From contig JANQFH010000008.1 in assembly GCA_028277945.1 (NCBI GenBank), positions 195,442 through 259,441 on the forward strand: 64,000 nucleotides of DNA. The letters run 5' to 3'. The first letter of the stretch is position 1; each line of letters begins with the position of its first letter. A model generated the notes under the pieces. It was not told the origin of the DNA. It saw nothing but the letters and a program-made list of their open reading frames with translations, and searched no databases. The position numbers and the translations under genes are program-made. The DNA is from Oligoflexia bacterium (GTDB lineage: Bacteria > Bdellovibrionota_G > JANQFH01). Positions 5,728-41,116 of the stretch are shown here, one piece after another.

Positions 5728-5736
5728 TCTCCAAAC

Positions 5737-6675: not shown

Positions 6676-6688
6676 GGCCTACAGTGAG

Positions 6689-12515: not shown

Positions 12516-12608
12516 GTAGGCAACGAAAATAAGACAACGAAGCTAAGTATGGGAGTGGATGGTCTCTGCTCCCGTACCTTCAAGCCAGGCATATGAGAGA
12601 TCGATTTA

Positions 12609-14607: not shown

Positions 14608-14619
14608 GATCAGCATACA

Positions 14620-18395: not shown

Positions 18396-19142
18396 CTACT
18401 CTCCAAAACCCTTCACAAAAAACTTCTCATCGATCAACCGCAGACCCTCATAGACCTCATACTTGATCAAGGCACCCTTGGTATCGCGGTAGAGCCCTTT
18501 GCGCACTTGTCTTGGTTTTTTGTAAAGGCCCTCAACCTTGCTCAAAAAGGCTGCCAGTTCCTCTCTACTAAAAGGGCCATGCCGTTCCCAATCGAGCCAA
18601 TCAGGGCCAATGGAGACCACCACCGATAGCTCACGGCTGCCAGGTTTTACTCCACCAAAGAGCTTCTTTGCCATCCTCTGACTGCCAAGCGTCAGGAGGT
18701 GCCAGTTGCGGCTTTCAAAATGCTCTCGCTTGTTCTGCTGATCCATAAACATAAAATAGACGCCTTCGCTCCAGGAGCTACGATCCAGATTGACGCCTTT
18801 TTTGAAGCGCTCTAAAAATGTTTTTAAATCGGCAGGTTGATCATGCCAATGCCGTATGATCCTTTTGATAAAAGACCAGGTTGAGATGACAGACATGCCC
18901 TCCTCATCTTGCGACTGATCCAGAGAGTCGAGTTTTTCTAATTCATAACCTCTAAACAGTTCCGAACCTGTATCAGGCTCTGTTACCAGCAGCAGAGCAC
19001 CATCTTTAAGTTCCACAGTATCTCCAAACTCTATAGGTCTTTCGATATCCTCAGGAACTCCAGGGATATCAATCACTGTATCTCCCTGCTGTGCAAAGGG
19101 AGAGTCTGGATGGGGGGGTCGTTTTTCTCTCTCACGCATCAC
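18396..19142 (-). CDS. hypothetical protein, possible immunity/partner protein for the upstream RES-domain protein
   Basis: 248-aa ORF whose start overlaps the stop of 19139..20923 by 4 nt; no signal peptide; acidic. Confidence 0.4.
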   Translation of the reverse strand: MMREREKRPPHPDSPFAQQGDTVIDIPGVPEDIERPIEFGDTVELKDGALLLVTEPDTGSELFRGYELEKLDSLDQSQDEEGMSVISTWSFIKRIIRHWHDQPADLKTFLERFKKGVNLDRSSWSEGVYFMFMDQQNKREHFESRNWHLLTLGSQRMAKKLFGGVKPGSRELSVVVSIGPDWLDWERHGPFSREELAAFLSKVEGLYKKPRQVRKGLYRDTKGALIKYEVYEGLRLIDEKFFVKGFGE

Positions 19143-20923
19143 TCTAGGGCCTCAAAAAGAACGACGTTAAAGCCATCTGGATTTCTTGCCGAGGGTACGA
19201 CAATACCACGATAGTGCAGCCGCGCCAATTCTCCTATTATTTGTGTTATTGAGTAATCCTCAGAGATCAAAGCTTCAGGAGCTATATTTAATAGCTCCCT
19301 GACACTTGGTTCATTAAGATCGAGCATGTTGTCGAGTGTGACATAGCGGCTTCTTGTTTCAATCACCCCCTTGACACCATGGGCTCGCATTTCCGCGGCG
19401 ATGGTCTGCCGATCGCCGCTCATGTAAAGCGCGCTTCTTCCCGGCGCTGAATAGCGATGGTTGGCGGCAATATTACCCTGCGGTATTTTCCACGAACCTG
19501 CTCGGTAAACATCACCTCTGTATTTACTTCCCTTGACAACACCTTGAACCAGCTTTTTGGTGGTATCAGGCCCCAAAGCTTGGCTCGCCCTTATCACCGC
19601 AGGCAGATGCTGCTGATCAAAGAGCTTTCTTGCCAAGCCACCACCACCGCGCCCTAGCAAACTGGTGGTCCCTCGGACCATGACCGTGCCTGACAGGACC
19701 ATAGGCACCATCATGGAGACAACTGTCTCTAAAGCCATCTCAAGCGGCAAGCTCGCCTCGACAACTCCAGTTGACGAATCCTCTTGTAGTGCCCACAAAT
19801 GGTAGTCTGCTGCCGCCATTTTGAGTGCTCCTGACAAGAACTCGCCGTCTCGGATATCTTGCACTCCCTCAATCATTAAATAGGCGGCATCTATAAGATG
19901 TGGCAGATCTGGCAGGGTTAAGGCATGATCGAGGGTAATCTCCACATGTTGCCAGATGTGTTGGGAGAGCCTCTCACCTAGATCGCGCTCTAACAGCGCC
20001 AACTCATCGAAGGTCTCAACACGGATGCGCGCCATGGAGCTGTCTGCTTCCAAATGGAGTCGACCTTTGGCCGTTGATTGAGCGCGTTCTGCTCGGTCAA
20101 TGAGTTCGTCTAATGTCTCCTGTATCCAGCGATGTCGTATGAGATCTCGCATGCTGCGAAGCTCGTGAACCCGCCGTGAGAATGCCGCGTAGCCATAGGC
20201 AACCACCTCCTTACTTGAAGCCCGTTCCACAGCCGCCAGGGCAACATCGGTGGAGGTGGCCGTGAGCCCCAGAAATAGTGGCAATCCATGTCTGTTTTCA
20301 GGAAGTGGCAACTGAGCTTGCTGTTGAAGTTGCACAAAAAGAGAGGAGTTGTGGATCATGTCACTAGCGGAACTGTGAGAAGCGAGATCGGAACCACCCC
20401 TTTCGTGGAGGGTGCGAATGTCGAGGCCGCTTGCAGATGATTCATCTCGAAGCTGATCATCTTGAGCTTGCTCTGCAGAGAGGCTTAGATGTTTGTTACT
20501 CTCTGCAACTGCAGTGTTGGCTTGAAGTAGGCTGAGGCCACGTTGCAACCCTGTAAGGTACTGAACTCTACGCCGAGCTTCCACATCACTGTGAGTCGGT
20601 GCTGAGCCTTCTTCATCCTCATCATCAAATCCACCGATCTCTCCTCTCGGGCTATCAAAGAAAGGGTCAAATCCTTCATCTTCTGTTTTGTCTTTGGGTT
20701 TTTGAGAGGAAACGATAACAATAGGCGTGTCAAAAACAATATGGACGTTGCCATCGGAGTCAACGGTCACATTTCCTGGCTCTGTGGTGTAGTCGTGCTC
20801 TCTTTCCTGAGCTGATTCAGTTTGTCCTGCATCATCTTGTGCAACAAGCTCTCTCTGCAACGGCGAAAAAAGACAAATCGTCGCGATCAATAAATAAAGC
20901 AGGCTTTTACATGAAATTTTCAT
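19139..20923 (-). CDS. secreted protein with C-terminal RES-domain (NAD-targeting toxin-like) module
   Basis: 594-aa ORF; signal peptide; C-terminal region with RES-domain signatures YRAGSW ... RYSAPGRSALYMSGDRQTIAAE ... VVPSARNPDGFNVVLFE. Confidence 0.6.
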   Translation of the reverse strand: MKISCKSLLYLLIATICLFSPLQRELVAQDDAGQTESAQEREHDYTTEPGNVTVDSDGNVHIVFDTPIVIVSSQKPKDKTEDEGFDPFFDSPRGEIGGFDDEDEEGSAPTHSDVEARRRVQYLTGLQRGLSLLQANTAVAESNKHLSLSAEQAQDDQLRDESSASGLDIRTLHERGGSDLASHSSASDMIHNSSLFVQLQQQAQLPLPENRHGLPLFLGLTATSTDVALAAVERASSKEVVAYGYAAFSRRVHELRSMRDLIRHRWIQETLDELIDRAERAQSTAKGRLHLEADSSMARIRVETFDELALLERDLGERLSQHIWQHVEITLDHALTLPDLPHLIDAAYLMIEGVQDIRDGEFLSGALKMAAADYHLWALQEDSSTGVVEASLPLEMALETVVSMMVPMVLSGTVMVRGTTSLLGRGGGGLARKLFDQQHLPAVIRASQALGPDTTKKLVQGVVKGSKYRGDVYRAGSWKIPQGNIAANHRYSAPGRSALYMSGDRQTIAAEMRAHGVKGVIETRSRYVTLDNMLDLNEPSVRELLNIAPEALISEDYSITQIIGELARLHYRGIVVPSARNPDGFNVVLFEALE

Positions 20924-22313: not shown

Positions 22314-24110
22314 CTAACTCTGAGGCCGCAGGCCAATTGGAACGAGGCTAGCGAGACTTTTAGGAATACATTTCACACCAAGTCGAGCACAATTCATGAG
22401 GACAACCTCCTCTTCAAAATGGCTTGTCACAAGTATAGCCTGATCTTGAAGGTTGAGCTCTTCAATGAGATCGAGCCCGGTTTCCTTAAAGTTGAGAAGT
22501 TCATAGTCACACAGAAATAAAGCATTGTGTGTATCATTCTTCTCAACCCATGTTCTTATGGCGTCGGGTGTAGACAGATTGTCAAGTTTGATCCTATTTC
22601 CTCCTCCGTTGCGTAATGCATGAAATCGCTCTCGCCAAATCTGATGAATCGTAGGATCGTCGTCCAAGGTTACAATGCGGGAGTCTGGCGCAACTTCAAG
22701 TCTGGGTACAAACCAAGACGGAGGACTTTCTTTGGGTAAAAGCAGAGATATCTGAGTACCTTGTCCTTCCGTACTCTCAATTTTAAGCTCACCTCCCCAG
22801 CTTTCAGCGGCCACTTTTGCATGATAGACTCCAAGACCTAGACCACTATCCGTTCCCCCCTTTCCATAGGTCACTCCCTTTTGGCCCAGTTTTCCGAGAA
22901 TGTCCGGTGGTATTCCTGTCCCGTCGTCTTTTACATAGAGACACAATGTTGAATTATTATGTTGGAACAGGCCAATTTCGATGACACCCTCATCGGTCAT
23001 TGCTTCAACAGAGTTATTTACAAGATTTGAAATTACACGCTTAAGCTCAACAGCACTGACTTTGGCAAACAGTCCGTAGGATTTTTCATCCAATTTGGCC
23101 TCAATTCGGATTCCTGTTTTAGTTCGGAATTGACCCCGTTTTTCGCTGACGATACTTTCTATAATACTTGATATCAACCAAGTCCTTCTCATGGCTTGAT
23201 TGGGCCTCTCGTCATGTTGAGCCTGATGTATATTTCTGCCCAGCAAGTTGTTGGCGATATCTTTAATACGTTGGGACGCATTACGTATAAGAACGCGTTT
23301 CTCTTCCGGAATGTCTACAAGAGTGCCAGCCAAAAGATCCAATGCTGCTACAGGAGCTCGTATATCATGCGCGATTTGTTGAGCCACTTGGTAAACAGCT
23401 TCCGCCTTTTTTGTTTCGATCCTATATTGATTTGACTGAAGAGTTTGTTGCGCAAGTTTCCTAATGGAAGAGGTGAGAATAACAACTTCGGACAGATCAC
23501 CCTTGATATTTGGCTGATCAAGGAGTGAAAGATCTTCTAAGTTGCCACTTTCAGCTGTTTGACTAAGCGTGTGTAGCGGTGCTGAGATCCGATGTGCCAC
23601 TCTTTTTAGCATAAGGAAAGCTATAGCAGCGATAGTCATTAAGACAAATAGAGATACTCCCATAATCCGGTAGTATAGACCACGAATGATTCCGGTATTA
23701 AACCTCATACTAACCATAGCCGCTGGTTGTGTCTTTTCGTCGTCAAAATATACAGTGCGTTCAACGACAAATTTACTCGTCCTCGACACTTCTGCAGTTT
23801 CTGGTAAACTCTCGTAAATAACTTCTCCTCTTATGTTCGAAATAATAATGTTATCTATGGCCTCTTTTTTTATCAAGAGATTGCACTTTTCACGGATGCT
23901 GAGGTGAGAGCCGGTAAGAATTTCGTAGCGAATATTCTCGGAAAAGAGTTCTAAAATCATCTCATGTTTTGACGCAACTAAGTTATCGAAACTCTTGTTA
24001 ACCGCAAATAGAATTAGGATTCCCACAAGAATTAAACCCAATGATACTGTTATTGAAAAAGTTCTGAGTAAACTGGTGAATACAGTATGTTGACGTTTAG
24101 GCATTTCCAC
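22314..24110 (-). CDS. hybrid sensor histidine kinase with C-terminal receiver domain
   Basis: 598-aa ORF; two TM helices flanking a periplasmic domain, H-box IAHDIRAPVAAL, HATPase_c motifs (NLVNNSVEAM, DDGTGIP, GLGLGVY), REC-like C-terminus (TLDDD ... LFLCDYEL). Confidence 0.85.
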   Translation of the reverse strand: MEMPKRQHTVFTSLLRTFSITVSLGLILVGILILFAVNKSFDNLVASKHEMILELFSENIRYEILTGSHLSIREKCNLLIKKEAIDNIIISNIRGEVIYESLPETAEVSRTSKFVVERTVYFDDEKTQPAAMVSMRFNTGIIRGLYYRIMGVSLFVLMTIAAIAFLMLKRVAHRISAPLHTLSQTAESGNLEDLSLLDQPNIKGDLSEVVILTSSIRKLAQQTLQSNQYRIETKKAEAVYQVAQQIAHDIRAPVAALDLLAGTLVDIPEEKRVLIRNASQRIKDIANNLLGRNIHQAQHDERPNQAMRRTWLISSIIESIVSEKRGQFRTKTGIRIEAKLDEKSYGLFAKVSAVELKRVISNLVNNSVEAMTDEGVIEIGLFQHNNSTLCLYVKDDGTGIPPDILGKLGQKGVTYGKGGTDSGLGLGVYHAKVAAESWGGELKIESTEGQGTQISLLLPKESPPSWFVPRLEVAPDSRIVTLDDDPTIHQIWRERFHALRNGGGNRIKLDNLSTPDAIRTWVEKNDTHNALFLCDYELLNFKETGLDLIEELNLQDQAILVTSHFEEEVVLMNCARLGVKCIPKSLASLVPIGLRPQS

Positions 24111-25611
24111 CTAATCCTTTTCGGTGCAATTTCCATAATTCATGAAAAAATGTCTCTCCAAATTTTGGCATGTCTATTTGCTTTTTTAAGAGAATAGGAT
24201 AGTCAAAGGCCAGAATAGGGACAAAAAAATGTCTGCTTTCAAAATCTACCAGCTCTCTCTCGTACAGTTTTAGGCGTCGCAAGCGTTTTTTAGTAAACCG
24301 GATTGCCGAAATCCTATCCAAGAATTCTTTAACGGGAAATAATCTTTCAACGCCAAATAGCTTGCTCTGTAGAGGCCACAGGTAGCCATCTGGATCAGTT
24401 AGGCCTGCACCAAAAATAAAAGAGATCAGATCGAAATCCCCTGTCTTGTAGTAATTCAATAGCAGGGCCAAATCGACGATTCGAATATCCGGAACTAACC
24501 CTAGTCGTTCTAAAAGGGAGGAAACGCTATTGATGTGTTGCTGAGACATAAAACCTTTGTATACAACGACTCGAAATTTGTGGCCCTCAAGTTTCGGATA
24601 TTTTGTGACAAAGTTATCTTCAGTGATTTGGCTTTTTCTTGGTCCATAATAAGACATCGGAAGAGTACCCTCGGGAAGGAAGGTATGAAGAGATTTCTGG
24701 AAAGGCACTAGATTTTTCTTGATGGTGGATAGTGATGAAATAAGATAGCTTAAGTCGCGTCGTAGATTAGAGGACTTTAGATGGGCTCTATGTGTGTTAT
24801 ATAGGAAATGTAACACAAACACATTGTTGGGAAGAACCACATCAAAGCTGCTGCTATCAAGTTTGATTTTCGCAAGTTCATATGGGGCCACACCCAAAAA
24901 AACATCGAATTTGTTGGCCTCTATCAAGGTTCTTAAATCACTATAATCGTATCCTTCAACCACAAGTTTATAAATATTTTCGGAGGAAGTTCTTGGTTCA
25001 AAGCTCCAAGTTTTTCCTTTATTTGTTAGACTTGCAGTCATTAAACCGGAGCCGGTACAACAAAACGATTCTTTTTCGACAATGCCAAAAAGAGGATTGT
25101 TAAGAAGCTTTAGAAAAGGAGGATAGGGCCCCTTGAGATAAAATCTAATGTGTTGTTCGTCTATTGCCTCGACAGCATTGGTGCCTGCTTTGGTCTTGGG
25201 TTGCAGGGCAAGCTCCAAAATCGATCGTGAAGAAAAGTTTGATTCTAAAATTCTGAGAAATGAGTGCTCAACATCTTTGGCAGTGATTTTTCTTCCATTA
25301 TGAAAGCGTAGGTTAGGTTTTAGCTTAAAAGTGTATTCTCTGCCACTATCGTTTATGCTCCAACTTTCGGCTAGTTCAGACACAACAATACCTCTCTCAT
25401 TCAGGCGGACTAGACGCGAAAATACACAGGCGCTCATCATAAGGTGCGATACCGATACTATTTTCATTGGATCTAGAGTTTGTGGGAGAATGCTCACACC
25501 AATCTTTAGTTCATTGTAATTCGTCAGGTCTTTTGCCAGCAAATCAGTACTCAAAAAGCATATTAAGAATAGCACGGAGAAAATATTGAATTGTTTAGCA
25601 CTCTTTTTCAT
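24097..25611 (-). CDS. family-5 extracellular solute-binding protein, orphan
   Basis: Start chosen at ATG 25611 (MKKSAKQFNIFSVLFLICFL signal peptide) rather than the upstream in-frame start at 25701; stop overlaps the histidine kinase start by 14 nt. Confidence 0.8.
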   Translation of the reverse strand: MKKSAKQFNIFSVLFLICFLSTDLLAKDLTNYNELKIGVSILPQTLDPMKIVSVSHLMMSACVFSRLVRLNERGIVVSELAESWSINDSGREYTFKLKPNLRFHNGRKITAKDVEHSFLRILESNFSSRSILELALQPKTKAGTNAVEAIDEQHIRFYLKGPYPPFLKLLNNPLFGIVEKESFCCTGSGLMTASLTNKGKTWSFEPRTSSENIYKLVVEGYDYSDLRTLIEANKFDVFLGVAPYELAKIKLDSSSFDVVLPNNVFVLHFLYNTHRAHLKSSNLRRDLSYLISSLSTIKKNLVPFQKSLHTFLPEGTLPMSYYGPRKSQITEDNFVTKYPKLEGHKFRVVVYKGFMSQQHINSVSSLLERLGLVPDIRIVDLALLLNYYKTGDFDLISFIFGAGLTDPDGYLWPLQSKLFGVERLFPVKEFLDRISAIRFTKKRLRRLKLYERELVDFESRHFFVPILAFDYPILLKKQIDMPKFGETFFHELWKLHRKGLGGNA

Positions 25612-25616: not shown

Positions 25617-26933
25617 TTATGATCCTGACCGCACAGAGCTCTTTCGTTTTTGTTCGGATAATAAATAGACAGAAAAAATAGAAACAACACAGATGATACA
25701 CACTGTAATCATGGCCTCTTCAACAGAAGGAGCTCCATCTCTACATTTGCCTAGGTACCAGCTGTAGAAGCCGATACCTGCAAAAGCAGGCATATTCTGT
25801 AAACTTAGAGCTGTTGCCAATTCCTCATTGTCTACTACGGAGCATAGAAGGTTAGTTGCTAATGCGCCTGTGGCTCCGACCACAACATCAGCCATAACGG
25901 CGTATACTAAGATCATGAGGATTAGCATCGTAGGGTTTAGTGAGCTGAATGTACATAAAATATACAGACTGATTGTAGCAAGAAGAGTAAAGTGAATTAA
26001 GAGGTAATTATTTGTACTTAATCTTTTGCTCATCACTAGCCTTGGTAGTACATGTCCTCTTACAATCCATCCTATTCCACCATAAGCAAAGGTAAAGAGT
26101 CCCATGATAAACCACGAGAATAGGCCGTGGTCCGCATTTCCAAACTGTCTACCCAGAGTGATCGCAAAGTAGCCCGCGTTTACTGCAGCTAACATAAAGG
26201 CTGATAGCCGTAAATAAATCGCCTTTTTGGCGACCATACTTTGCCGTAACCTGCTGATTAGATTCGATGTGCTTGGTCTCCCCCCACTTATTGAAGTATC
26301 ACCATAAATACGAAAGTCCCTGAAAAGACGATAGAATCCTGCATACCATAGCAAAATACCGATGATCAGTGTGTGATGCACTCCAATGGTGTGATAGGTA
26401 ACAAAAAGTAAGACAAAAGCCAGCAGGATAACCAAGGCTGTGAGATATTTCCCGGCATGTTGGCTGAGAGTAAAACTTTGGCTGGCCATTTTCTCTGCTT
26501 CGTTATGTCCTTTTGATAACCTACGGATAGCATCCTGGTAGAAAGCCTCCACAGATCCTGAAATCAATGGCTTTGAAAATCCAACAATGACGCCATGTAT
26601 GATAAAAAGAAGCCGAGAAAAGGTGTTCGGCATGCTCGGGAAAAGGGCCACATAGATGCCACAGGTTCCAAGGAGAATAAGAAAACCGCCCAATAGTGCG
26701 CAAGGAATTCTACCAAAACGATCCGCAACGTATCCCATTGGAACTTCAAAAATCACATTCATCAGAAACTCAATGCCCGTAAGCAGAGCAACTGTATCAA
26801 GCGGTACGTTAGCCAGCACACCAGCAGTAATACGGAAAGTGATCGAAATGAAATGAGTTGATGCGAGGTTGAGAGCTCTAAATATACCTAAACTTTTAAC
26901 ACATGCTTGAGTTTGTGCGAGGGTTTGATCCAT
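25617..26933 (-). CDS. MFS-type transporter
   Basis: 438-aa polytopic membrane protein with MFS motif-A-like loop GYVADRFGRIP. Confidence 0.7.
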   Translation of the reverse strand: MDQTLAQTQACVKSLGIFRALNLASTHFISITFRITAGVLANVPLDTVALLTGIEFLMNVIFEVPMGYVADRFGRIPCALLGGFLILLGTCGIYVALFPSMPNTFSRLLFIIHGVIVGFSKPLISGSVEAFYQDAIRRLSKGHNEAEKMASQSFTLSQHAGKYLTALVILLAFVLLFVTYHTIGVHHTLIIGILLWYAGFYRLFRDFRIYGDTSISGGRPSTSNLISRLRQSMVAKKAIYLRLSAFMLAAVNAGYFAITLGRQFGNADHGLFSWFIMGLFTFAYGGIGWIVRGHVLPRLVMSKRLSTNNYLLIHFTLLATISLYILCTFSSLNPTMLILMILVYAVMADVVVGATGALATNLLCSVVDNEELATALSLQNMPAFAGIGFYSWYLGKCRDGAPSVEEAMITVCIICVVSIFSVYLLSEQKRKSSVRSGS

Positions 26934-26945: not shown

Positions 26946-27779
26946 TTACACTTCTATTCTCTCTCTGACACCTAGCATAAACAACTTAATGTCCTTATCG
27001 AATTCCAGAAGACCAGATTTTGTAATAGTAGTAAGATCCTTTATATACTTGTTCTTATAACAATCTAAAATACGACTGGAACTCTGCTTGATTAACTCTT
27101 CTATCGAGTGATTCGAATGTATCCGCAAACCAAGTTCCAGCATGGCCGCCTCAGCAAAGGCTGCATGATAGATACCGAACAGTGGCCTTTTCATGTTTCT
27201 CAAAGCTGATCGGTCTTCTTTTGCCCATGGATAGCGATTCACTGTGGCTTCACTTTTTGTTGCAAAGACAATAGTAAGGTAGTGATGGCCCAACTCGTGA
27301 GCTAGAATTTCTGCCCACTTCACAGGGTCATCACTATTCATTACATATTCAATAAGTCCAAAGACTTGGGGATCAGAGGCTGATTCGTGTTCAACACCTT
27401 GCCTGGGAAAACACATTCTTGGTTTGATAATTTGCTCAAATGCAAATAGTTTCTTCCATACTACTCCGATAATTGTTCTTGCTGCAGAGTATAGTGCTTC
27501 TTTTTCTGGATAGCGTTGCAGTGAAGAATCAAAAATAATGTTACTGCCAACTACGAACTTGCTACGTGCGATATCACGAGTTATTAGATTGCTAACTTGG
27601 TCAGTTGACAGACTAAACTTATCACGATTGAAATAGATCCAAGAGAGAGTTGATAAGCTCAATTCTCTATTAATGTCTATATTGCGGAATGCTGGTATGA
27701 GCTTAAGAGCTTGCATTCCCTGCTGTCTAAATTGACTAACGTATTTTTTTGTCAGATCAATTGAGAATATAGAAGGCAT
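26946..27779 (-). CDS. HExxH-motif protein (paralog of 12609..13601)
   Basis: 277-aa ORF with AHELGHH and RPLFGIYHAAF segments; first long gene after the candidate precursor ORF. Confidence 0.55.
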   Translation of the reverse strand: MPSIFSIDLTKKYVSQFRQQGMQALKLIPAFRNIDINRELSLSTLSWIYFNRDKFSLSTDQVSNLITRDIARSKFVVGSNIIFDSSLQRYPEKEALYSAARTIIGVVWKKLFAFEQIIKPRMCFPRQGVEHESASDPQVFGLIEYVMNSDDPVKWAEILAHELGHHYLTIVFATKSEATVNRYPWAKEDRSALRNMKRPLFGIYHAAFAEAAMLELGLRIHSNHSIEELIKQSSSRILDCYKNKYIKDLTTITKSGLLEFDKDIKLFMLGVRERIEV

Positions 27780-27817: not shown

Positions 27818-27922
27818 CTACGACCCGGTAGGTATGCTAGCTAACTTAGCACCTAGCACACGGTGTGATTGAAAAGAGAAATTGAAGGAAACTGTCTTTT
27901 TACTTTCGTTGCTTTTTGCCAT
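27818..27922 (-). CDS. candidate precursor peptide (34 aa): MAKSNESKKTVSFNFSFQSHRVLGAKLASIPTGS
   Basis: Below the ORF-track size cutoff; ATG preceded by AGGAG at 7-nt spacing; stop lies 38 bp upstream of the HExxH gene start. Confidence 0.35.
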   Translation of the reverse strand: MAKSNESKKTVSFNFSFQSHRVLGAKLASIPTGS

Positions 27923-28017
27923 TTTCTAGCTCCTGGTTACAGATGGTTTGTAACTTGTTTGTAATTTTGTCAGTTACACATTATCTGGAATCGATAGCAA
28001 TTAATACCTTTTCAAAA

Positions 28018-28145
28018 GCAAGAGTTAGGCCAATGGGAATATCCAATATTTCAATACGTTGTAAATATATGATACTCGGAGACAGTGTGTCTGATATAAG
28101 ACATTCTGTTCACTATGAAGACAGTTTGTTTGTATTTCGAACAAT
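28018..28145. repeat. conserved ~128-bp operon-leader element, copy 2
   Basis: Paralogous to 15906..16033; contains GTCTGATATAAGAC imperfect palindrome and ACAGTTTGTTTG; lies about 95 bp upstream of the candidate precursor ORF at 27922. Confidence 0.6.
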
Positions 28146-28499
28146 AGCCTCAGTAAGGATTGAGGTAGGTTAGGCTCCATTTTTTATTCCTAGGTAACCC
28201 ACTGAAAGTAAACAAAAGGTGCAGTTGACGCAACTTGGGTTGGCACCGATCTGATGCGGCGCGCCCTTATTTGATATATTCTTGTTATTTTCATATAGTT
28301 AGCGAACCTATCTTCTGGTACACTAGTTGCAACTCCTAGAGAGTAGGGTACTAGGAGTTAATAGGGAACTAAAGTTACAAAAACCTCGGTATGAGGTTGC
28401 AATGTAACACGATAATGTATTAAAATTAAATTCTTAATTGAAAAAATAATACGTAACTTCTAGAGCTACGAACGTGTGTCATCAAAGGAGGGGGGCAAC

Positions 28500-29189
28500 A
28501 TGTTTCGCAACAAGGGTAGACGGTTTTCAAATAACGGCTTTTCTCTAACCGAGGTGATGATCTCGGTATCGATTGTTGGCATCCTCTCTGCTGTAGCCAT
28601 TCCTACGTATAAGAAACACTTCCGCCGCGCAAAAATCGCTGAGGCGCATCTGGGTTTGGCTGACCTACACAAATCCATGCAAGCGCACTTTCTCCAACAT
28701 CGTTGGTACAACGCCAATATAGATCAACTAACTAGTGACGCTAAGTTCACAGACTCAAAGTCACGGGCAATCTATGGGTTTAATGCAAACCAATATACTG
28801 GAGGTACATTCCCAACATGTAAAACCACCAACGAGGACTGCTTTACTACTCATGGGGAGGGTAATGATTTAAACGTAACTCCTGCGGATATCTTATTTGA
28901 ACGAGCCTGCCCCCAAGTGTCCTTCGGATCACTAGTAAAGTGTTCCTTTCCTATTCCGAGCTATGATCCTCGCAGCGGCGACCCTAAAGCCAGCGATTTT
29001 ACGTGGGGTCGACCAACCCGTTATGAAGCGCATGCAGTCATGGATATAGATAACGACGGCGAGTTGACAGTCTTTGGTGTTAATGAAACAGGTACGATTT
29101 TCCAGCTCTGTAATGATGGTGACAGTGTTGAAGTGGCTGGCAGTTATACTGGGGCACTTGCGGGAGATGTTATCTGTAGTAGACCCTAG
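28500..29189 (+). CDS. type IV pilin-like protein (prepilin-type N-terminal cleavage/methylation domain)
   Basis: ATG at 28500 preceded by AGGAGG; N-terminus RRFSNNGFSLTEVMISVSIVGILSAVAIP matches the prepilin G-F-(S/T)-L-x-E motif plus hydrophobic helix; Cys-containing C-terminal domain. Confidence 0.7.
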   Translation: MFRNKGRRFSNNGFSLTEVMISVSIVGILSAVAIPTYKKHFRRAKIAEAHLGLADLHKSMQAHFLQHRWYNANIDQLTSDAKFTDSKSRAIYGFNANQYTGGTFPTCKTTNEDCFTTHGEGNDLNVTPADILFERACPQVSFGSLVKCSFPIPSYDPRSGDPKASDFTWGRPTRYEAHAVMDIDNDGELTVFGVNETGTIFQLCNDGDSVEVAGSYTGALAGDVICSRP

Positions 29190-29207
29190 TAGATCACCTT
29201 TAAGACT

Positions 29208-31196
29208 ATGCCCCGAAGATTTAACTATAACTTTTCTGGCTGGCTGAAGAAGTATTTCATTCCTCTTTTTATCTTCCTATTAAGCCTTACCACGGTCTTC
29301 AGCTTTTACCTTCTCAGTTCTCCCTCTGATCAAAAAACTGTCTTCAGCATTGTAGACCGCTCCCTCTACCACTCCTTTTTATTGCCAACAACTACCCAAG
29401 AGCTCTCTAGCAACGCCCCCATAACTATCGTCGCCATAGACGACGAAGATCTAGAGCGTTATGGCTCTTGGCCTTGGTCACGAGCGCTCTTAGCCAACGG
29501 TATCGAGGCGATTAATCGTTACGATCCAGCCCTGGTTGGGTTCTCTATCCTCATTGATCCTTTGCGCACGGTGGCCCCTTCAGAGAACGCAGCGCTATTC
29601 AAAGAACTCGCTGCCACTAAACACTTGGTTACTGCCTTTAACTTCAACTTCTCTCAACGCTTTCAAATAGGCACTGAAGAAGTCAGCTGGATCGCCAAGG
29701 CCGCTTTAGATGATCGACCAACTACAGAGGTCTCTGTCTTTCCCTATCAGCGTCCATTTAGCTTTCATGCTGCTGCACCTGAAGTCGTCAACGCCTCTGC
29801 CAACATGGGCTTTCTCAGCTACGCCAACTCTAAGGGACTTCTAGTCTACCCAACACTCTCTTACTTTGGCAGTCACTTCTACAAATCCTATCCGTTGGCA
29901 ATCGCGCAGAGTTTTAAACAGCAACAAACCCCAACAAAACTCTCCATCTTACGTAATAGAGAAGGTGTAGAGGGTTTGGAGTTTGGTAACCACACCCTGC
30001 CTACCCTTAACAACGGTACCATTCTATTGAGACCCTACAAGAAGCTCTCCCAAAGGAACGACCGTGCCTTTCCACAACTACGCTTTCGTGATCTTTTAGA
30101 AGGCAAAATACAACCGCACAAGTTGCGCGATAAGATCGTCCTGGTTGATCTAACTGCTTCAGGTTACTCACAGTCCTTCAACGTTCTCGATGGTGGTTTG
30201 GCCTCGAGACCAGTGATCCATGCCACTGCTGTGGCCAACCTGTTGCAAAACGACTTTATCCGTCGCGATGGGCGGGCCACGCTGCTAGAGACCCTATTGA
30301 TTCTCCTGGTAACCCTCTTGGTTTGGTGGTGCTCACGTAACCTCAAGGCAGTTACGGCAGTATTTGCCATCTGCCTTACGATTCCAGCTACCTTGCTCCT
30401 CATTGCATTAGCTGCGATCCACTTTGCCAACCTCTGGTTGCTGATCTCCTATCCATTAGCAGCACTGCTGATCTCCTTTCCCCTGCAGTTTGGCTACAAA
30501 CACTTTGTTGAAGATCGCCAGCGTCGCATAGTCGAGCGAGCACTCACAGGTTACACCTCAAAAACCGTGATGGACCGCTTGATTGAGAGAGGAGAGAGCT
30601 TTTTAACCTTAGGGGGTGAACGCCGTGATCTCACTATCTTGTTGTTCGATATCAAGGGTTTTACCCAACTATCCCACCGTCTGACCCCTGAAGAGACCTT
30701 TAAGCTGTTAAACCACATCTTTAAGCTTACGGATGAGATCATTATCGATCGCTTCAATGGAATGATTGATAAAAAGATGGGTGATGCTTGCATAGCTCTC
30801 TTTGGTCTTGATGGTGGCAAGGAGCATGCTCTGCATGCTGTGCAGGCAGCGCTGGCTATACAGGAGACTTTGTTTGAGCGCTTTGCTGAGCTCTCTCGCT
30901 TGGCTCACAAACAGGAGCTGGGTCCAGGTTGTATCCAGATCCGCGTTGGCATCACCACCGGTACCGTACTCCTTGGCAATGTCGGCTCTGAGCGACACAA
31001 GAACTTTACGGCCGTGGGTGAGATCGTCAACCAATGCCAACGCCTTGAGGCAGCTTGCAGTCTAGGTGAAGTGTTGATCAGTGAGGAGACCTACAGACGT
31101 TTAGGTGACCAAGTCAGGGTTGAGAAGAAGCAAGCACCCGGCAAACGAGAGGAAGAGTCTTATCTCGCTTACCGGGTACTGGGTTTAGCACATTAA
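29208..31196 (+). CDS. CHASE2-sensor adenylate/guanylate cyclase (class III nucleotidyl cyclase)
   Basis: 662-aa ORF; N-terminal TM helix, extracytoplasmic CHASE2-like region, TM cluster, C-terminal cyclase homology domain (ILLFDIKGFT ... MGDACIALFG ... GNVGSERHKNFTAVGEIVN). Confidence 0.8.
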   Translation: MPRRFNYNFSGWLKKYFIPLFIFLLSLTTVFSFYLLSSPSDQKTVFSIVDRSLYHSFLLPTTTQELSSNAPITIVAIDDEDLERYGSWPWSRALLANGIEAINRYDPALVGFSILIDPLRTVAPSENAALFKELAATKHLVTAFNFNFSQRFQIGTEEVSWIAKAALDDRPTTEVSVFPYQRPFSFHAAAPEVVNASANMGFLSYANSKGLLVYPTLSYFGSHFYKSYPLAIAQSFKQQQTPTKLSILRNREGVEGLEFGNHTLPTLNNGTILLRPYKKLSQRNDRAFPQLRFRDLLEGKIQPHKLRDKIVLVDLTASGYSQSFNVLDGGLASRPVIHATAVANLLQNDFIRRDGRATLLETLLILLVTLLVWWCSRNLKAVTAVFAICLTIPATLLLIALAAIHFANLWLLISYPLAALLISFPLQFGYKHFVEDRQRRIVERALTGYTSKTVMDRLIERGESFLTLGGERRDLTILLFDIKGFTQLSHRLTPEETFKLLNHIFKLTDEIIIDRFNGMIDKKMGDACIALFGLDGGKEHALHAVQAALAIQETLFERFAELSRLAHKQELGPGCIQIRVGITTGTVLLGNVGSERHKNFTAVGEIVNQCQRLEAACSLGEVLISEETYRRLGDQVRVEKKQAPGKREEESYLAYRVLGLAH

Positions 31197-35657: not shown

Positions 35658-37493
35658 CTAGGCACTATATCTCGCCAGTGATGATTGATTGTTCAATTCG
35701 GGCATTACTAGTAGCGGCACAGTATTCGCCAGCATTTTAGGTAGTAATTTCACTTTCCACTTAGTACATAATTCTTGAATTTCCATTTCTTCAAAGCGAG
35801 AAGTTACAAGTATTGATTGTTGCTCCAGCCTGTATTCCTTGATCAAATCCAATCCGGTTTTTTTACTTCCTAGCAATTCATAGTCAAAAAGATAAATTGA
35901 TGGTCCCTGTTCTTTATGTTGTGCTAGATAGCTTGATGCATCGGTATAATTAGACAAATCAACTTGATTAATGGAATGTAGATATTTCAGCGGGCCAAGC
36001 CGGTTTGTCCACACGTGGTGGATAAATATATCGTCGTCAAGTACTACAAAGTCACTATTTGGCTTTATATGAATTTTTGGAACATACCAATTTGGTGGAG
36101 GAGCCTTGGGAACTATCATCTTCACATTCGTTCCCATGTTTTGCCGTGAGTCTATTGTTAGTTCTCCATGCCAACGTCCTAAGGAGCTCTTCGCATAGTA
36201 TAAGCCTAGTCCTAATCCATGTTTCTTGTTAGCAGTCACACCTCTCTCTGTCGCTTTTTTAAGCAGTTCCTCTGACATGCCGCATCCATTATCCGAGACT
36301 TCAATACAAAAATTGTCTCCGGAACAATTGCATAGTCGTATACTAACTTCACCATTATTTGGAATAGCTTCCACGGCGTTATTAATAAGGTTCGAGAGAA
36401 TTCTTTTGAACTCGACAATCTCGACCTTCGCAAAGATACTATAGGCTTCTTCCGTAAAAACTGTATTAATCTTTATATCCTTACGTCCTGAAAACTGAAT
36501 CCTCTTTTCGGACACAAGAGTTTCTATAAGCACGGCGATCTGCTGAGTACTTACACGTTCGAAGTGAGTGTTGTCTAAATGGCGGGCATCCTGATCTGAG
36601 TAATAGGTATTGTCATTCCAAAGTAGCTGACGATGCTTTTCTACTAAGCTATTAGCAATATCCTGAATACGTGTGGCCGCTTGTCGCAAAAGAACACGTT
36701 GTTCTTCAGGGATATCACTAGAAGACTTGCCCAACATCTGCAAAGCAGTCAACGGTGATCTGATATCATGGGCCACTCTTGAGGCAATCTCGCCCATTGC
36801 GGCCTTCTTTGTTGCTCGTACTAGAACAGCTTGGGCTGTTTCTAATTCTTTTACCAATTTTCGAGTATTTTTGTATAATTCATTAATCTCCTTTATGTTT
36901 GAAAATCGTACTTCTTGAGAATTCTCAAATAGAGACCTTAGTCCATGTTGCGAAAGTCGTCTAGATAGATGCACTATCGGCCAAGTAATTTTTTTTCCTA
37001 TAACCCCTCCTATCCAGACGAATATAATAAATAGGGAAACAAGGGCTATTACGAGCACTACTAACGCTCGATAAACAGATCGTGATAATAGTTGTTGTGA
37101 AAAAACAATCTGGATCGTTGCTGCCATTTCTTTGCTAGTTTGATCAAAGTAGACATGAGAGGTAATAACTTCAGTTGAGGAGATTCCCTCACGTTTGGTG
37201 GTACTGCAGATTGAAAAATTTTGACTGTCAACAACACTTATACCCAAAATTGACCGGTCACGTAAAAGTATTTTACATTTTCTGTAGACTTCCGCATGGG
37301 CTCCTATAAGAAGACTGTGGCTTATGTCCTCGGTAAAGATGTTTACGATAGATTGGAACTTTGCTTGAAGCTCCTCCTCTGCACTCTTCTTTATCAAGTA
37401 GAGTGCCAATGCCCCACTAAGTACGACAGTTGCCGCCGTTATGACGGCTGAGGGAACGAACATAGCCCTGCCTAATGTCCACCTAAATCTCAT
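35658..37493 (-). CDS. hybrid sensor histidine kinase with C-terminal receiver domain
   Basis: Paralog of the other two kinases; H-box VAHDIRSPLTAL, N-box NLINNAVEA, G-box DNGCGM, REC-like VVLDDD ... LFDYEL; start taken at ATG 37493 (track TTG start at 37532 is the alternative). Confidence 0.85.
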   Translation of the reverse strand: MRFRWTLGRAMFVPSAVITAATVVLSGALALYLIKKSAEEELQAKFQSIVNIFTEDISHSLLIGAHAEVYRKCKILLRDRSILGISVVDSQNFSICSTTKREGISSTEVITSHVYFDQTSKEMAATIQIVFSQQLLSRSVYRALVVLVIALVSLFIIFVWIGGVIGKKITWPIVHLSRRLSQHGLRSLFENSQEVRFSNIKEINELYKNTRKLVKELETAQAVLVRATKKAAMGEIASRVAHDIRSPLTALQMLGKSSSDIPEEQRVLLRQAATRIQDIANSLVEKHRQLLWNDNTYYSDQDARHLDNTHFERVSTQQIAVLIETLVSEKRIQFSGRKDIKINTVFTEEAYSIFAKVEIVEFKRILSNLINNAVEAIPNNGEVSIRLCNCSGDNFCIEVSDNGCGMSEELLKKATERGVTANKKHGLGLGLYYAKSSLGRWHGELTIDSRQNMGTNVKMIVPKAPPPNWYVPKIHIKPNSDFVVLDDDIFIHHVWTNRLGPLKYLHSINQVDLSNYTDASSYLAQHKEQGPSIYLFDYELLGSKKTGLDLIKEYRLEQQSILVTSRFEEMEIQELCTKWKVKLLPKMLANTVPLLVMPELNNQSSLARYSA

Positions 37494-39021
37494 TGTCTTT
37501 AGCCCACTGTAGTCGGTAGAGAGGAAAGTCAAATTGGTAGCGTTTTTCCGGGACTTTAATATGTTTGTGGTAAATTACCGGAGTATAAAGATGAAATAAT
37601 GGAACGATAAATGACTTTTCCTCAAACTCAATCATTAGATCAGTGTATTTTTCTAATCTCCGTATACGGTCAGATATGAAACTGATTTCATCAGCACCCT
37701 TTAAAAGCTTCGTTGTGGGGAAATTGCCAAATTGGATTGGATTTTTGGCTCGAAACAAGTCTAGGAAGCCATCTGGGTCTGGTATGACTCCAAAATAACC
37801 TACCATAATCAAATCGTAATCTTTGCTTTTTAGAAGAGGTATAACCTCTTCAATATTTTTGAACTCTATAATCGGGATCATACCTACGTTGGTCAACACT
37901 TCACTGATAGCCTTACCTACAGGTATGTTTAAATATTCTTTCCTCAAAACTATTCTAAGCTTTTTATGTTTTACTTTATTTTTCCAGAGCTTTTTGAAAC
38001 TGATCGGACTCATACGGCGAAAGTCACGTTCGTAGTATCTTCTTAGAAGAACGCCATGTGGTAAAAAATGCTTCTGATGGTCTATAAAGAAACCGGGTTT
38101 CTCTATCTGGGAAACTCGAGTTTTTATTAGCGCCGCAATATCTCTTCTAAAACTTTCATTACTTAGTGCTGGATTGTCAGTGTTTGTATATAGATGTAGG
38201 ATGCCCAGTCCTCCTAGACGGAGTAACTGATAATTATTTGGTAGTGTTCCCGGTTGTAATCCTGGATCAGCAAAGCCTAATGCGAAGTCAATCGAGTCAT
38301 TCCGTAATTGTGATAGTAGTTGATTTGCGCTTTCTACCCGTCGAAACGAAAGCCTGGATATATGGCTATCATTGGGAACGAACGGAACCATCTGCAGACG
38401 ATTTGGCAGTTGTACTGAGTCCAGAGAAAAAGAGCCAGACCCCACTACCTGAGAAGAACTACCAGAGGACTTTTTAGTTACACCGTAACCAGGTACTGCT
38501 AACAATTCTAACAGATACGGATACGGACGCTTGAGGCTTAGAATAATCGTGTGCTGATTCGGAGTGATAATTCCCGATGGTATTTGTCCATCTTTCAGGT
38601 TTTCGGCACCTACCACGATACGACCTAGATAGCTGGATATTTGCGTCATACTACCTTGCCATAAATGGCGTGACAGACTAAAGGCGATATCTTTACTCGT
38701 AATGAGCGCACCATCATGGAACCGAGCATGACGATCCAGATGAAAGCTATAACGTCTTCCATCTGAAGATATCTTCCAGCGCCTTGCAAGATCAGCTGTA
38801 ATACGATTTTCTTTGTCTAACTTTACTAGAGTGCGTAAGTATGGTCTAAGAAGGTCAGAATGTACGTAATGCCACGCATCTATTGGATCCAGAGAGCTGG
38901 GCAAAATAGGCAACGCTATCTCAAAGCTGTTGGTTGTCTTACGGTACTTCTGTTTAGATGATGCTGCATAAGTATGAAAGACAAATGAAAATAAAAGAAA
39001 GTGCAACAGGCACGCCTTCAT
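37483..39021 (-). CDS. family-5 extracellular solute-binding protein, orphan
   Basis: SBP5 paralog; start taken at ATG 39021 (MKACLLHFLLFSFVFHTYAASS signal peptide; GTG at 39042 is the alternative); stop overlaps the kinase start. Confidence 0.8.
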   Translation of the reverse strand: MKACLLHFLLFSFVFHTYAASSKQKYRKTTNSFEIALPILPSSLDPIDAWHYVHSDLLRPYLRTLVKLDKENRITADLARRWKISSDGRRYSFHLDRHARFHDGALITSKDIAFSLSRHLWQGSMTQISSYLGRIVVGAENLKDGQIPSGIITPNQHTIILSLKRPYPYLLELLAVPGYGVTKKSSGSSSQVVGSGSFSLDSVQLPNRLQMVPFVPNDSHISRLSFRRVESANQLLSQLRNDSIDFALGFADPGLQPGTLPNNYQLLRLGGLGILHLYTNTDNPALSNESFRRDIAALIKTRVSQIEKPGFFIDHQKHFLPHGVLLRRYYERDFRRMSPISFKKLWKNKVKHKKLRIVLRKEYLNIPVGKAISEVLTNVGMIPIIEFKNIEEVIPLLKSKDYDLIMVGYFGVIPDPDGFLDLFRAKNPIQFGNFPTTKLLKGADEISFISDRIRRLEKYTDLMIEFEEKSFIVPLFHLYTPVIYHKHIKVPEKRYQFDFPLYRLQWAKDNEI

Positions 39022-39038
39022 CAAAATGTGAATGAGTT

Positions 39039-40130
39039 TCACTGCGTACTCCGGTCACAGTAGATCTCAATATCATTCTGTTTTATCAGTATATGTTTTT
39101 GTGTATACGTTACTTCTACGCCTTTATGGTGTGCTTTGTAATCATATCTATAATGACCATCGAAATATCGGCATATTTGTAACGGCCCTGATTTTTTTAG
39201 TAGGTCTGTCACCCCCAATTGTAGAGGATTTTTATTTCCCGAACGTGATGACGAGGCCATCTCCTGAAACGGATGCAATTTTGAATCAATTCGCTTAGGT
39301 ACATTAGGATGAGCGTAATAAAATATTTCTCTGTCACCGCACTTCCTAAAGTAATAGGGAATGTCACCTCGTTCTAATTGTTCTAGCTCACTAGGTAGAA
39401 ATTCGTTCCCGTTTAAATTATTCGCCTTCTTTGTCAAGAAGGAATGATAATCTCTTGTAGACCGAGGAATGACCCGAATCGGATTTTGCATGAATCCATC
39501 AATGGAAGCAAAAAGATTCGCTGTGAGTTCTGTTACTGATGAGAGAAAGTTCAATGCGTCAAAAAAACCAAAGCAAATTGCAGCAACGCCACTGTGGGAT
39601 CTATCCAACTCTCGAAAGTTATTTAATAGGTGGGAGAGTCCTGAATCTTCAAATGTCAATGCAGGGGAAGGTATGAGTGCTGTTTCAGAGAGAAGTGTGT
39701 GATCTTCAAAGATACATTCTATATCGATAGGGCTGAATATGATACTGCCAGCAGAAGTCTTGCCAAGCAATACATTGGCACGGTGCAGATCTCCAATTCC
39801 GAACCAAGTAATAAGTGCGATGGTACGGCCAATATCTTCTAATACTTCTAAATCTAGATCTTTGGAAATGAGAGGTTTAAGTAGGAGTTCCTCTACTCTG
39901 CCAAAACATTTTTCACCAGGAGATGACATTTCGACATATAGTTTTGGTAAAGATCTTCCTGGGTATACAAATCCCCTTTTCTTAGCTTCAGATTCTAATA
40001 AAGATGTTAAGGGACTTAATCGAGATAAGAAGAGGTATTCCCAAAATACAGTTCTAGGCTTGCAAATCCTTTGGGTACCATCACGACAAACTCGCTGTCC
40101 AAAATTGTGAGGGTCGCCTAACGGTTGCAT
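39039..40130 (-). CDS. hypothetical protein, possible kinase-like phosphotransferase fold
   Basis: 363-aa ORF with GGGAGG before the ATG; segment GIGDLHRANVLL resembles catalytic loops of aminoglycoside/protein-kinase-like phosphotransferases; occupies the modifying-enzyme slot of the cassette. Confidence 0.35.
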   Translation of the reverse strand: MQPLGDPHNFGQRVCRDGTQRICKPRTVFWEYLFLSRLSPLTSLLESEAKKRGFVYPGRSLPKLYVEMSSPGEKCFGRVEELLLKPLISKDLDLEVLEDIGRTIALITWFGIGDLHRANVLLGKTSAGSIIFSPIDIECIFEDHTLLSETALIPSPALTFEDSGLSHLLNNFRELDRSHSGVAAICFGFFDALNFLSSVTELTANLFASIDGFMQNPIRVIPRSTRDYHSFLTKKANNLNGNEFLPSELEQLERGDIPYYFRKCGDREIFYYAHPNVPKRIDSKLHPFQEMASSSRSGNKNPLQLGVTDLLKKSGPLQICRYFDGHYRYDYKAHHKGVEVTYTQKHILIKQNDIEIYCDRSTQ

Positions 40131-40144
40131 ATGCCTCCCATCAG

Positions 40145-40258
40145 TCTATGCGGGTAGAGAAAGGGGAGGCTTACCTAGATCCCTACAGTCACGCCACGTA
40201 TTACGACAATCTTCTCCAATTTATCTAAATCTATGTATTCTCGTCTTCTTTTTTTCAT
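40145..40258 (-). CDS. candidate precursor peptide (37 aa): MKKRRREYIDLDKLEKIVVNTWRDCRDLGKPPLSLPA
   Basis: Below the ORF-track cutoff; ATG preceded by AGGAG at 6-nt spacing; stop lies 14 bp upstream of the 39039..40130 gene. Confidence 0.35.
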
Positions 40259-40895
40259 GATTTACTCCTATTTAGGTTATATCCACCAATTTTTCAAGCT
40301 CTTATTTGATATCCTTAAAGCTTAGGATGCACCCTATCCTAATTTATTTCTGCAAGGAACGTGCTAACAAAAAAGTTAATGATTTTAAAAGATTGGGTTC
40401 TTCAGGAAAGAGTATTGTTGGTTTTTGCAACAATCTAGTGCATAAAACGACAAATTGTATCTCTTACGACCAAGGTTAATAAAAGTTAATAGTGATTGAA
40501 GGGGAGGATTAGTTGTGGAGTGTTAACCCTTGGATGATATTAGACGAATTTTGAAAATCGGTCTTAATCTATTGATAAAAAAGAAACTTTTTGGGAAATT
40601 GGGGTTGATTGCCGACTGACCCAACAAAATACTACAGAAGTCTTAATGTGACAGACGTAACACATGATTCATTTCAGATGCTTATGTTGTAGTGCAGAGT
40701 GTATAGAATTTTCTCAACAAGAAGGCATATATCCTGGGAAAGGCTGCTGGTTATGGGATGTGGCCTTGCCTACTGGTATGGCGACTTACAACACTTACTC
40801 TTTTGTTAATTTCCGTAGGACTAAGAGTGGTTGCGAGGCTGGTGTACAGCATTCTCCCTATTTCAGTGGAGGGCTTGTTTTCAGAGTTTAAACAC

Positions 40896-41000
40896 CTAGT
40901 TCGCTATGAGGCTTTCCATAAACTGGTAGCCTTCGGCAATTGCAGCATCGGTAATTTGGTCCTTCAAACTGTCAACACTTCTCCGTCCCCAAGCACATGA
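40896..41000 (-). pseudogene. 3'-terminal remnant of a paralog of the lipase-like gene 44960..46414
   Basis: Minus-strand translation ...SVDSLKDQITDAAIAEGYQFMESLIAN-stop matches the C-terminus ...GLKDQITDAAITEGRQFMESLIVN-stop of 44960..46414, with a nucleotide match of about 70 bp; no upstream body. Confidence 0.5.
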
Positions 41001-41116
41001 AGTGTGTTGAACTTGAAATAGGTCTGCTACCTAAGCGAATGCTTTCCTACATTCCTATTGAAGTAGTTGGGCATAAATTACGTTAGTGGTTTTAACAAAT
41101 ACTAGTTAAGGTCTTG

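Follow-up and report, generated by a model that had tools for sequence, protein, structure and literature searches.

The 34-codon open reading frame (ORF) at 27922..27818 on the minus strand of the window, by which we mean the whole 64-kb stretch of DNA analysed here, is a real and conserved gene under purifying selection. It likely encodes the cognate peptide of an alpha-KG-HExxH-type enzyme whose gene follows directly downstream. The assignment as a precursor-peptide gene is based on the translation (MAKSNESKKTVSFNFSFQSHRVLGAKLASIPTGS), the conservation of a peptide family, Smith-Waterman comparisons and dN/dS values with a frame control. The genomic criteria for a RiPP precursor are met, namely a small, co-oriented, maturase-adjacent gene that is conserved, under coding constraint and preceded by a Shine-Dalgarno (SD) sequence. 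The role of the peptide as a substrate of the enzyme is inferred, and there are no modification data.

The ATG of the ORF is located at 27922-27920 and its TAG stop at 27820-27818, with a TGA directly in frame after the TAG. An SD sequence, AGGAG, at 27930..27934 (minus strand) is separated from the ATG by a 7-nt spacer, and 38 nt lie between the stop codon and the ATG (27779) of the gene for a 277-aa HExxH protein on the same strand. Since the two genes are in different frames, the ORF is not an N-terminal extension of the HExxH protein. The original prediction had claimed a 34-codon ORF with AGGAG 7 nt before its ATG, located 38 bp before the HExxH gene in the same orientation and upstream of an HExxH-MFS-SBP5-kinase operon. 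These claims held, including the downstream genes for the HExxH protein, an MFS transporter, an SBP_bac_5 protein and a histidine kinase; the strand, which had not been stated, is the minus strand. The description of the ORF as unannotated held only in part, being true of the ORF track used for that prediction alone, whereas a public protein collection already lists the identical 34-aa sequence as a called protein without a name (P0053, source NCBI). Only seven distinct ORFs of 20-70 codons with a strong SD were found on both strands in the approximately 11.9 kb of intergenic DNA of the window, and three of the seven sit directly 5' of peptide-maturase genes.

Besides the window, a homologous ORF of 23-41 aa was found in 15 related loci, whose contexts were drawn from assemblies and metagenomes. 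Names of relatives (Bacteriovoracia, Bacteriovoracaceae, Oligoflexales; Bdellovibrionota) are available only where a record title existed. In 14 of the 15 loci, the peptide ORF directly precedes the HExxH gene in the same orientation at a distance of 0-40 nt, and all 12 ORFs that were inspected carry AGGAG, GGAGG or AAGGA 5-9 nt before the start. Examples are the peptides of L001 (MKKSKKIGVKRRSFNLSILKNKVIGEIRGSFP), L006 (MKTNKKLGIKRRSFNLALLKNKLIGEVRASYP), L002 (MNEFSFNLEIHEDEVLGEARASGL), L015 (MSTVTFNLEIHEDQILGEARASM) and L004 (MNNADVTFDLRIHEDEILGAGRYSTGLNG). A family HMM found three members blind, in L026 (E=1.7e-10), L025 (1e-4) and L024 (9e-4), two of which had already been called as genes. 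In L009, where the SBP5 gene abuts the HExxH gene, a divergently oriented copy of the peptide (MNNQVQNAMEFDFAVYTDAVIGEERASF; HMM E=3.7e-8) is found about 1.6 kb away and yet still within the cassette, which indicates a linkage to the cassette and not to the position of an upstream ORF (uORF). No peptide ORF was found in two Oligoflexales-type contigs, which are probably too short to show one.

The peptides follow the consensus F-N/D-L-x-I/V-x-x-D/N-x-V/I-L/I-G-E-x-R-A/G-S, followed by one to nine variable residues. Two blocks are conserved, F-N/D-L-x-I and V-I/L-G-E-x-R-A/G-S, and the most conserved residues are at the extreme C-terminus. NCBIfam and Pfam gave no match for the family, and neither a transmembrane (TM) segment nor a predicted fold was found for peptides of this length. 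Among the closest relatives, dN/dS values of 0.16 (L001/L006), 0.12 (L005/L006) and 0.12 (L005/L001) were obtained, with dS around 1 or more in these comparisons. In the frame control, substitutions in the peptide ORFs are concentrated at third codon positions, and in the relatives the annotated frame is the only stop-free frame and also the best conserved one. Furthermore, the pairwise identities of the peptides correlate with those of the enzymes (Mantel r=0.51, 2/5000 permutations). A lack of conservation of the reading frame in related genomes had been named beforehand as a result that would refute the gene; the frame is kept in 15 related loci under purifying selection, so this refutation did not occur.

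Within the family, the peptide of the window diverges most and has G-A-K-L-A-S instead of G-E-x-R-A/G-S. A leave-one-out HMM of 11 sequences placed it at rank 1 of 2534 six-frame segments, but only with E=2, and an HMM of three peptide sequences was uninformative due to a Lys-rich N-terminus that dominated the score. Smith-Waterman alignments with the L001 and L006 peptides, which belong to the nearest relatives of the window enzyme, gave scores of 40 and 37 that were reached by 2-3 of 5000 shuffles; for L001, with 2 of 5000 shuffles, the window peptide ranked first among 2269 short six-frame segments. Together with the HMM rank and the exact synteny, these scores place the window ORF adequately in the peptide family. 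A chance ORF preceded by a coincidental SD-like sequence would be compatible with the short length and the weak leave-one-out HMM score. This explanation is practically ruled out by the synteny with 15 homologous ORFs, the Smith-Waterman results, the rarity of small ORFs with a strong SD in the window and the fact that the sequence has already been called as a gene.

The 277-aa protein encoded downstream (26946..27779, minus strand) is a stand-alone member of the alpha-KG-HExxH-type peptide hydroxylases. It has no Pfam match and passes NCBIfam TIGR04267 (aKG-HExxH-type peptide beta-hydroxylase; IPR026337) with 43.6 bits against a cutoff of 40 (E=3.1e-11). A word-indexed protein search returned only the protein itself, and a single-protein contig scan returned nothing. 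Relatives were therefore taken from an exhaustive HMMER search and alignment-based scans; the HMMER search of 1.84 billion representatives yielded only 52 of them, with identities of 30-39%. In a family alignment of 21 sequences, H161-E162-x-x-H165, Y167, R198-P199 and H205 are invariant. The HExxH and R-P...H motifs align with HEHRH and RPPSGLLH of ChlH, and a profile of the family finds ChlH (PDB 8s5f) with E=7.9e-5 in an alignment that spans these motifs. The AF2 model of the enzyme has a pLDDT of 95.1, and its best PDB match with Foldseek is the ChlB-HExxH alpha-KG oxygenase 8s5f (TM 0.68-0.71, probability 1.0), followed by SjiH. Membership in the alpha-KG-HExxH family is thus shown by sequence, motifs and fold, while Fe(II)/alpha-KG-dependent peptide oxidation is inferred; the active-site roles in these enzymes were taken second-hand from the literature (PMC12636437, PMC13060819). 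Given the zincin-like HExxH fold, a hydrolytic instead of an oxidative role is not excluded, and PflC hydrolyses under some conditions (PMC12636437). As a separate observation, distant HExxH relatives in MAGs of Alphaproteobacteria have another conserved 34-aa ORF upstream (L011, 336-440, MSYLMQQRKTILNKLTLLLIASMLRSLMLKILSF; L012, 440-544, MNYLMQQRKTILNKLILLSIASMPRSSMLKISNF), which could be a further precursor family.

Characterised alpha-KG-HExxH enzymes hydroxylate Asp, His, Phe, Gln and Pro in RiPP precursors, and PflC/PosC also oxidatively remove a conserved C-terminal tetrapeptide (PMC12636437, PMC13060819). The substrates of all characterised members are genetically encoded peptides from adjacent genes (PMC12636437, PMC13060819), and it is by analogy with them that the peptide is presumed to be the substrate of the window enzyme. 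The known pathways (ChlB-HExxH, PflC/PosC, PesO and BipH/BpmH) involve the same enzyme family by sequence, motifs and fold. They likewise have an adjacent small precursor gene, and the conserved C-terminal residues of the peptides described here resemble those of PflA/PosA and PesA. As in the window cassette, an MFS gene accompanies the enzyme in the bip cluster (PMC12636437, PMC13060819, PMC12707348). In contrast to these pathways, the window HExxH protein is the sole maturase, without an rSAM, MNIO or nitroreductase enzyme, and the precursor is much shorter (23-41 aa) and has no NHLP-type leader. Further differences are the location of the cluster inside a two-component sensing cassette with SBP5, kinase and sigma54 regulator, and the lineage, Bdellovibrionota. 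The SSN clusters described in PMC12636437 include no such group.

An alternative is that the peptide is not a substrate but a small regulatory or accessory partner of the kinase, the SBP5 or the HExxH enzyme. Purifying selection proves only that the peptide sequence matters, and no modification has been demonstrated. Nevertheless, this alternative is considered unlikely, since the characterised enzymes all act on adjacent encoded peptides (PMC12636437, PMC13060819) and since a peptide of 23-41 aa without TM segment or predicted fold is most strongly conserved at its extreme C-terminus. A class I lanthipeptide was rejected as well because the cassette contains no LanB or LanC and the peptide no Ser/Thr/Cys-rich core. 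The leaders of class I lanthipeptides such as nisin, subtilin and Pep5 contain an FNLD box that resembles F-N/D-L-D/E-(I/V/L). An FNLD-like motif is present near the N-terminal half of the cassette peptides, and this resemblance can only be regarded as a lead.

Several promoter-like elements are located upstream of the ORF. A tentative sigma54-like -24/-12 promoter, TGGCCTAACTCTTGCT (28017..28032, minus strand), has the correct GG-N10-GC spacing and two mismatches to TGGCAC-N5-TTGCW, and lies 95 nt before the peptide ATG. Four TGTCT/AGACA half-sites within 44 nt (28080..28123, minus strand), 48-100 nt upstream of the sigma54-like site, form the densest such cluster of the 64-kb window, in which no other 70-nt span has four; they are tentatively regarded as a candidate enhancer-binding-protein site. 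A sigma54 promoter with a half-site regulator is possible but inferred from sequence alone. The sigma54-dependent response regulators encoded in related cassettes would fit such a promoter, but sigma54 consensus sites do not recur in the related loci. Two overlapping sigma70-like matches (28038..28093, minus strand; 9/12 each) could be alternative promoters, and such matches are no more numerous than in shuffled sequence. Between the promoter-like sites and the SD, an inverted repeat (27937..27990, minus strand) with 19-nt arms, 79% complementarity and a 16-nt spacer may represent an operator or a 5'-UTR hairpin. A transcription start downstream of the ORF had also been named as evidence against the gene. 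As far as sequence prediction can tell, all promoter-like sites from which the HExxH gene could be transcribed are upstream of the ORF. The peptide operon shares the 550-nt intergenic region with divergent genes for a type IV pilin-like protein (N_methyl and ComP_DUS-like) and a CHASE2-adenylate/guanylate cyclase (28476-31196).

A riboswitch, attenuator or sRNA in the leader was rejected because the leader has no Rfam match at E<=1 and its predicted folding is not better than that of shuffled sequences (z=-0.71). It also lacks a terminator or attenuator structure. These results also bear on the possibility that the ORF is a cis-acting leader peptide, that is, a uORF controlling the HExxH operon whose sequence acts as an arrest or attenuation signal. 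In favour of this, the ORF is located in the 5' leader, the HExxH gene has no obvious SD of its own, and the two ORFs are only 0-11 nt apart in most relatives, which suggests translational coupling. Against it stand the missing terminator or attenuator, the unremarkable fold, the lack of an Rfam match and the peptide gene of L009, which is conserved despite its location on the opposite strand. A leader peptide is therefore considered very unlikely.

The genes following the HExxH gene are closely spaced and encode a transporter, a binding protein and a kinase, all on the minus strand. The 438-aa MFS transporter (25617..26933) has multiple TM segments, matches Pfam MFS_1 with an E-value of 5.7e-7, below the gathering score, and is presumed to be an exporter. 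Its counterparts in the relatives are 27-47% identical to it and always directly follow the HExxH gene. The family-5 solute-binding protein (SBP5) of the OppA/DppA/NikA type (24097..25611; SBP_bac_5, 1.9e-31) has a signal peptide with a hydrophobic N-terminal segment. Its mechanically called ORF starts at a GTG at 25701 and overlaps the MFS gene. The true start is likely the ATG at 25611 (MKKSAKQFNIFSVLF..., MKKSAKQ...), which is 5 nt past the MFS stop and gives a normal signal peptide. The sensor histidine kinase (22314..24110, 598 aa) contains HisKA and HATPase_c domains, a C-terminal extension of unknown fold and two TM segments flanking a loop of about 110 aa, and no REC domain is detectable in it. 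The periplasmic location of both the SBP5 and the kinase loop is shown. Two paralogs of the kinase in the window, HK_A and HK_D, are 34-39% identical to it. The cassette contains no ABC permease genes and no terminator was found at its 3' end. Its GC content of 0.39-0.43 (22.3-28.5 kb) is lower than that of the adjacent genes (0.47-0.50) and of SelB (0.54).

The linkage of the peptide gene to the maturase gene and the conserved gene order of the cassette are shown. HExxH, MFS and histidine kinase follow each other in an invariant order in the related Bdellovibrionota-type loci, with homologous kinases ending the cassette, and the SBP5 gene adjoins in those longer loci that were annotated. A sigma54-dependent response regulator is present in five related loci (L003-L006 and L026), and the full order in the longer contigs is sigma54 response regulator, helical ORF of about 65-71 aa, SBP5, peptide, HExxH, MFS and kinase. 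In the window this order is rearranged to peptide, HExxH, MFS, SBP5 and kinase, and neither a response regulator nor a helical protein of about 70 aa was found within the 64 kb. The helical ORF is conserved between regulator and SBP5 (L003, 4198-4395; L004, 4247-4462; L026, 3193-3408; L005/L006, approximately 6160-6390) and has an 'HDF' motif in two loci, L005 and L006. Its product could be a phosphotransfer protein, in agreement with the weak REC match that the relatives' kinases show in three loci.

The arrangement suggests a signalling circuit, whose individual steps are mostly inferred. In this view, the ORF would be a small RiPP precursor gene that is co-transcribed with the downstream genes and efficiently translated from its own strong SD. 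The HExxH enzyme would oxidise the peptide, most likely by beta-hydroxylation of a side chain, and might also trim it oxidatively near the conserved C-terminal G-E-x-R-A/G-S. The modified peptide would then be exported by the MFS transporter and bound in the periplasm by the SBP5, acting as a co-receptor for the two-TM histidine kinase. In the related cassettes, the kinase would signal to the sigma54 response regulator, which would probably exert feedback on the promoter of the cassette. The direction of MFS transport is inferred by analogy with the HExxH-containing biphenomycin cluster, in which the hydroxylase is likewise accompanied by an MFS gene (PMC12707348); the binding of the product by the SBP5, the coupling of SBP5 and kinase, and the autoinduction are also inferences. 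It is possible that the SBP5 binds something else or that the MFS transporter imports instead. The site of modification cannot be predicted from the present data. Another point against the proposal is that no protease is encoded in the cassette and the peptide, with its two conserved blocks, has no defined cleavage site, leaving leader removal and the mature product undefined. Taken as a whole, a RiPP precursor that is hydroxylated, exported and sensed by SBP5 and kinase is slightly favoured by the evidence, while for the signalling reading specifically, which is an inference, the arguments for and against are nearly balanced.

Parts of this circuit have precedents in known systems. ComQXPA of Bacillus subtilis, AgrBDCA and the IP-HK-RR bacteriocin regulators encode a precursor, a modifying enzyme, a kinase and a regulator together. 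The operon logic of the cassette is alike, in that genes for a small precursor, a dedicated modifying enzyme, a kinase and a response regulator are grouped. In L003-L006 and L026 the peptide gene is accompanied by both the kinase gene and the regulator gene, whereas the window has the kinase without a regulator within 64 kb. ComQXPA-type systems are Gram-positive, their kinase binds the pheromone directly via a polytopic membrane domain, the modification is a prenylation or a thiolactone, and export occurs by ABC, AgrB or unknown routes. The cassette differs from them in its diderm host, the periplasmic SBP5 co-receptor, the MFS transporter, the hydroxylase and the sigma54 regulator. LuxP-LuxQ, TorT-TorS, ChvE-VirA and DppA-Tap resemble the cassette in that a binding-protein gene lies beside a kinase with a periplasmic loop and without a cognate ABC permease. 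The criterion for an SBP-dependent sensor is satisfied here, as the gene for a secreted SBP adjoins that for a kinase with a periplasmic domain in the absence of ABC permease genes. The proposed activation of the kinase by product-loaded SBP5 is modelled on LuxPQ, TorTS and DppA-Tap. Known SBP-dependent sensors detect AI-2, TMAO, sugars or free dipeptides, and none is known to detect a self-made RiPP. A pairing of a family-5 SBP with a kinase is undocumented in the literature searched, in which neither such a cassette nor RiPPs from Bacteriovorax-type bacteria are described.

The most plausible competing explanation, which overlaps with the preferred one, is that the product is a bioactive RiPP, such as an antibiotic or a compound directed at prey or competitors. 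In this case the MFS transporter would serve export or self-protection, and SBP5 and kinase would only regulate the cluster, either through autoinduction by the product as in nisin/NisK or in response to an unrelated cue. The evidence from precursor, maturase and exporter is identical for both explanations, antibiotic RiPP clusters with alpha-KG-HExxH enzymes contain MFS exporters (PMC12707348), and the relatives belong to predatory lineages. Speaking against a bioactive product, the peptide is linked just as closely to the SBP5-kinase pair as to the maturase, and the presumed core, which is very short, is not hypervariable but conserved even between distant loci. There is also no immunity gene and no protease, and the genome pairs SBP5 and kinase with three types of maturase, which resembles receptor-ligand modules. 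A bioactive RiPP remains possible. The proposal made beforehand that the ORF fits a RiPP precursor or a signalling pro-peptide is supported, but the chemistry and the choice between signal and bioactive compound are unproven in the absence of expression or mass-spectrometry data.

The window holds four modules in all, the peptide-HExxH cassette and three further maturase modules. Module A is a single operon on the minus strand (3907-8248) with SBP5 (6689-8248), YcaO (5737-6675) and histidine kinase (3907-5727). It yielded no convincing candidate for a precursor ORF; a 24-codon ORF with an SD is located downstream (3431-3505). Module B (12330-15888) is likely another RiPP locus. A perfect sigma54 consensus, TGGCACacaatTTGCT, at 12330-12345 (plus strand) is followed by a 40-codon Lys-rich ORF (12393-12515, GGGAGGA SD, MKDAKKTKRQQSKSSKKIFSPIKDKLLDTAMSTITYDVTG), a second alpha-KG-HExxH gene (12609-13601; TIGR04267, 66 bits), YcaO (13582-14607) and a convergent MFS gene (14620-15888). 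In module D (35658-42331), a 27-codon ORF, MKKRRREYIDLDKLEKIVVIRGVTVGI (40258..40175, minus strand), with an AGGAG SD precedes a DUF4135/LanM-dehydratase-like gene, SBP5 and kinase, accompanied by a divergent MFS gene; a sigma54-like site (40366-40351) lies 93 nt upstream. Two relatives of module D, L027 and L028, keep the order DUF4135-SBP5-HK. The upstream gene there encodes a secreted protein of 113-126 aa, which has a C-terminal D-L-x-K-L-E-K-like motif in common with the module D ORF.

Further genes were observed among and beside the modules. An MFS gene, a gene for an unknown 267-aa protein and an SBP5 gene (SBP5_E) lie in a row at 41114-44740 without an adjacent kinase or small ORF. SBP5_E is 42% identical to the cassette SBP5 and has no evident signal peptide. 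The 267-aa protein was considered as an HExxH relative and rejected, since it is not HExxH-like. Genes of a toxin or defence type, encoding Fic, a RES-domain protein and HipA, are interspersed with the modules (within 9717-10907, 19139-20923 and 50651-51907), and a 60-codon ORF of unknown function with an SD is found near 62 kb (61998-62183). Three maturase modules (12.4-15.9, 22.3-28.5 and 34.4-44.7 kb) have a GC content of 0.36-0.43, compared with 0.49-0.57 in the SelB, RES and Fic genes, so these GC-poor modules could be horizontally acquired islands, in which case the genome that hosts them need not belong to the Bacteriovoracia.

The SBP5-kinase pairing recurs three times in the window. 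The recurrence of SBP5/kinase and maturase modules is the basis for a bolder reading, according to which members of the Bdellovibrionota, a phylum of diderm and mostly predatory bacteria, would use self-made RiPPs as extracellular signals. These would be detected in the periplasm by OppA-like SBPs that dock to histidine kinases, which in turn act on sigma54 regulators, and the receivers would be combined with modular maturases. This reading goes beyond the cassette itself, and on the present evidence the balance tips slightly against it. If it were true, an SBP5-kinase receiver with interchangeable maturases (alpha-KG-HExxH, YcaO, LanM-dehydratase-like) would provide several orthogonal peptide channels per genome.

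The cassette is of interest for natural product research, as it comprises a precursor family not described before and a stand-alone alpha-KG-HExxH system reduced to one substrate of 23-41 aa and one enzyme. Such a minimal system is attractive for studying how substrates are recognised by this recently discovered class of enzymes. The cassette is also an example of how a gene of fewer than 40 codons that is missed by length filters can be the organising element of a cassette of five to seven genes. Peptide-based cell-cell signalling is regarded as a Gram-positive speciality. If the signalling proposal is true, RiPP signals sensed by a periplasmic SBP and a kinase in a diderm bacterium would constitute a new signalling architecture and would provide a handle on how relatives of obligate predators coordinate their behaviour.
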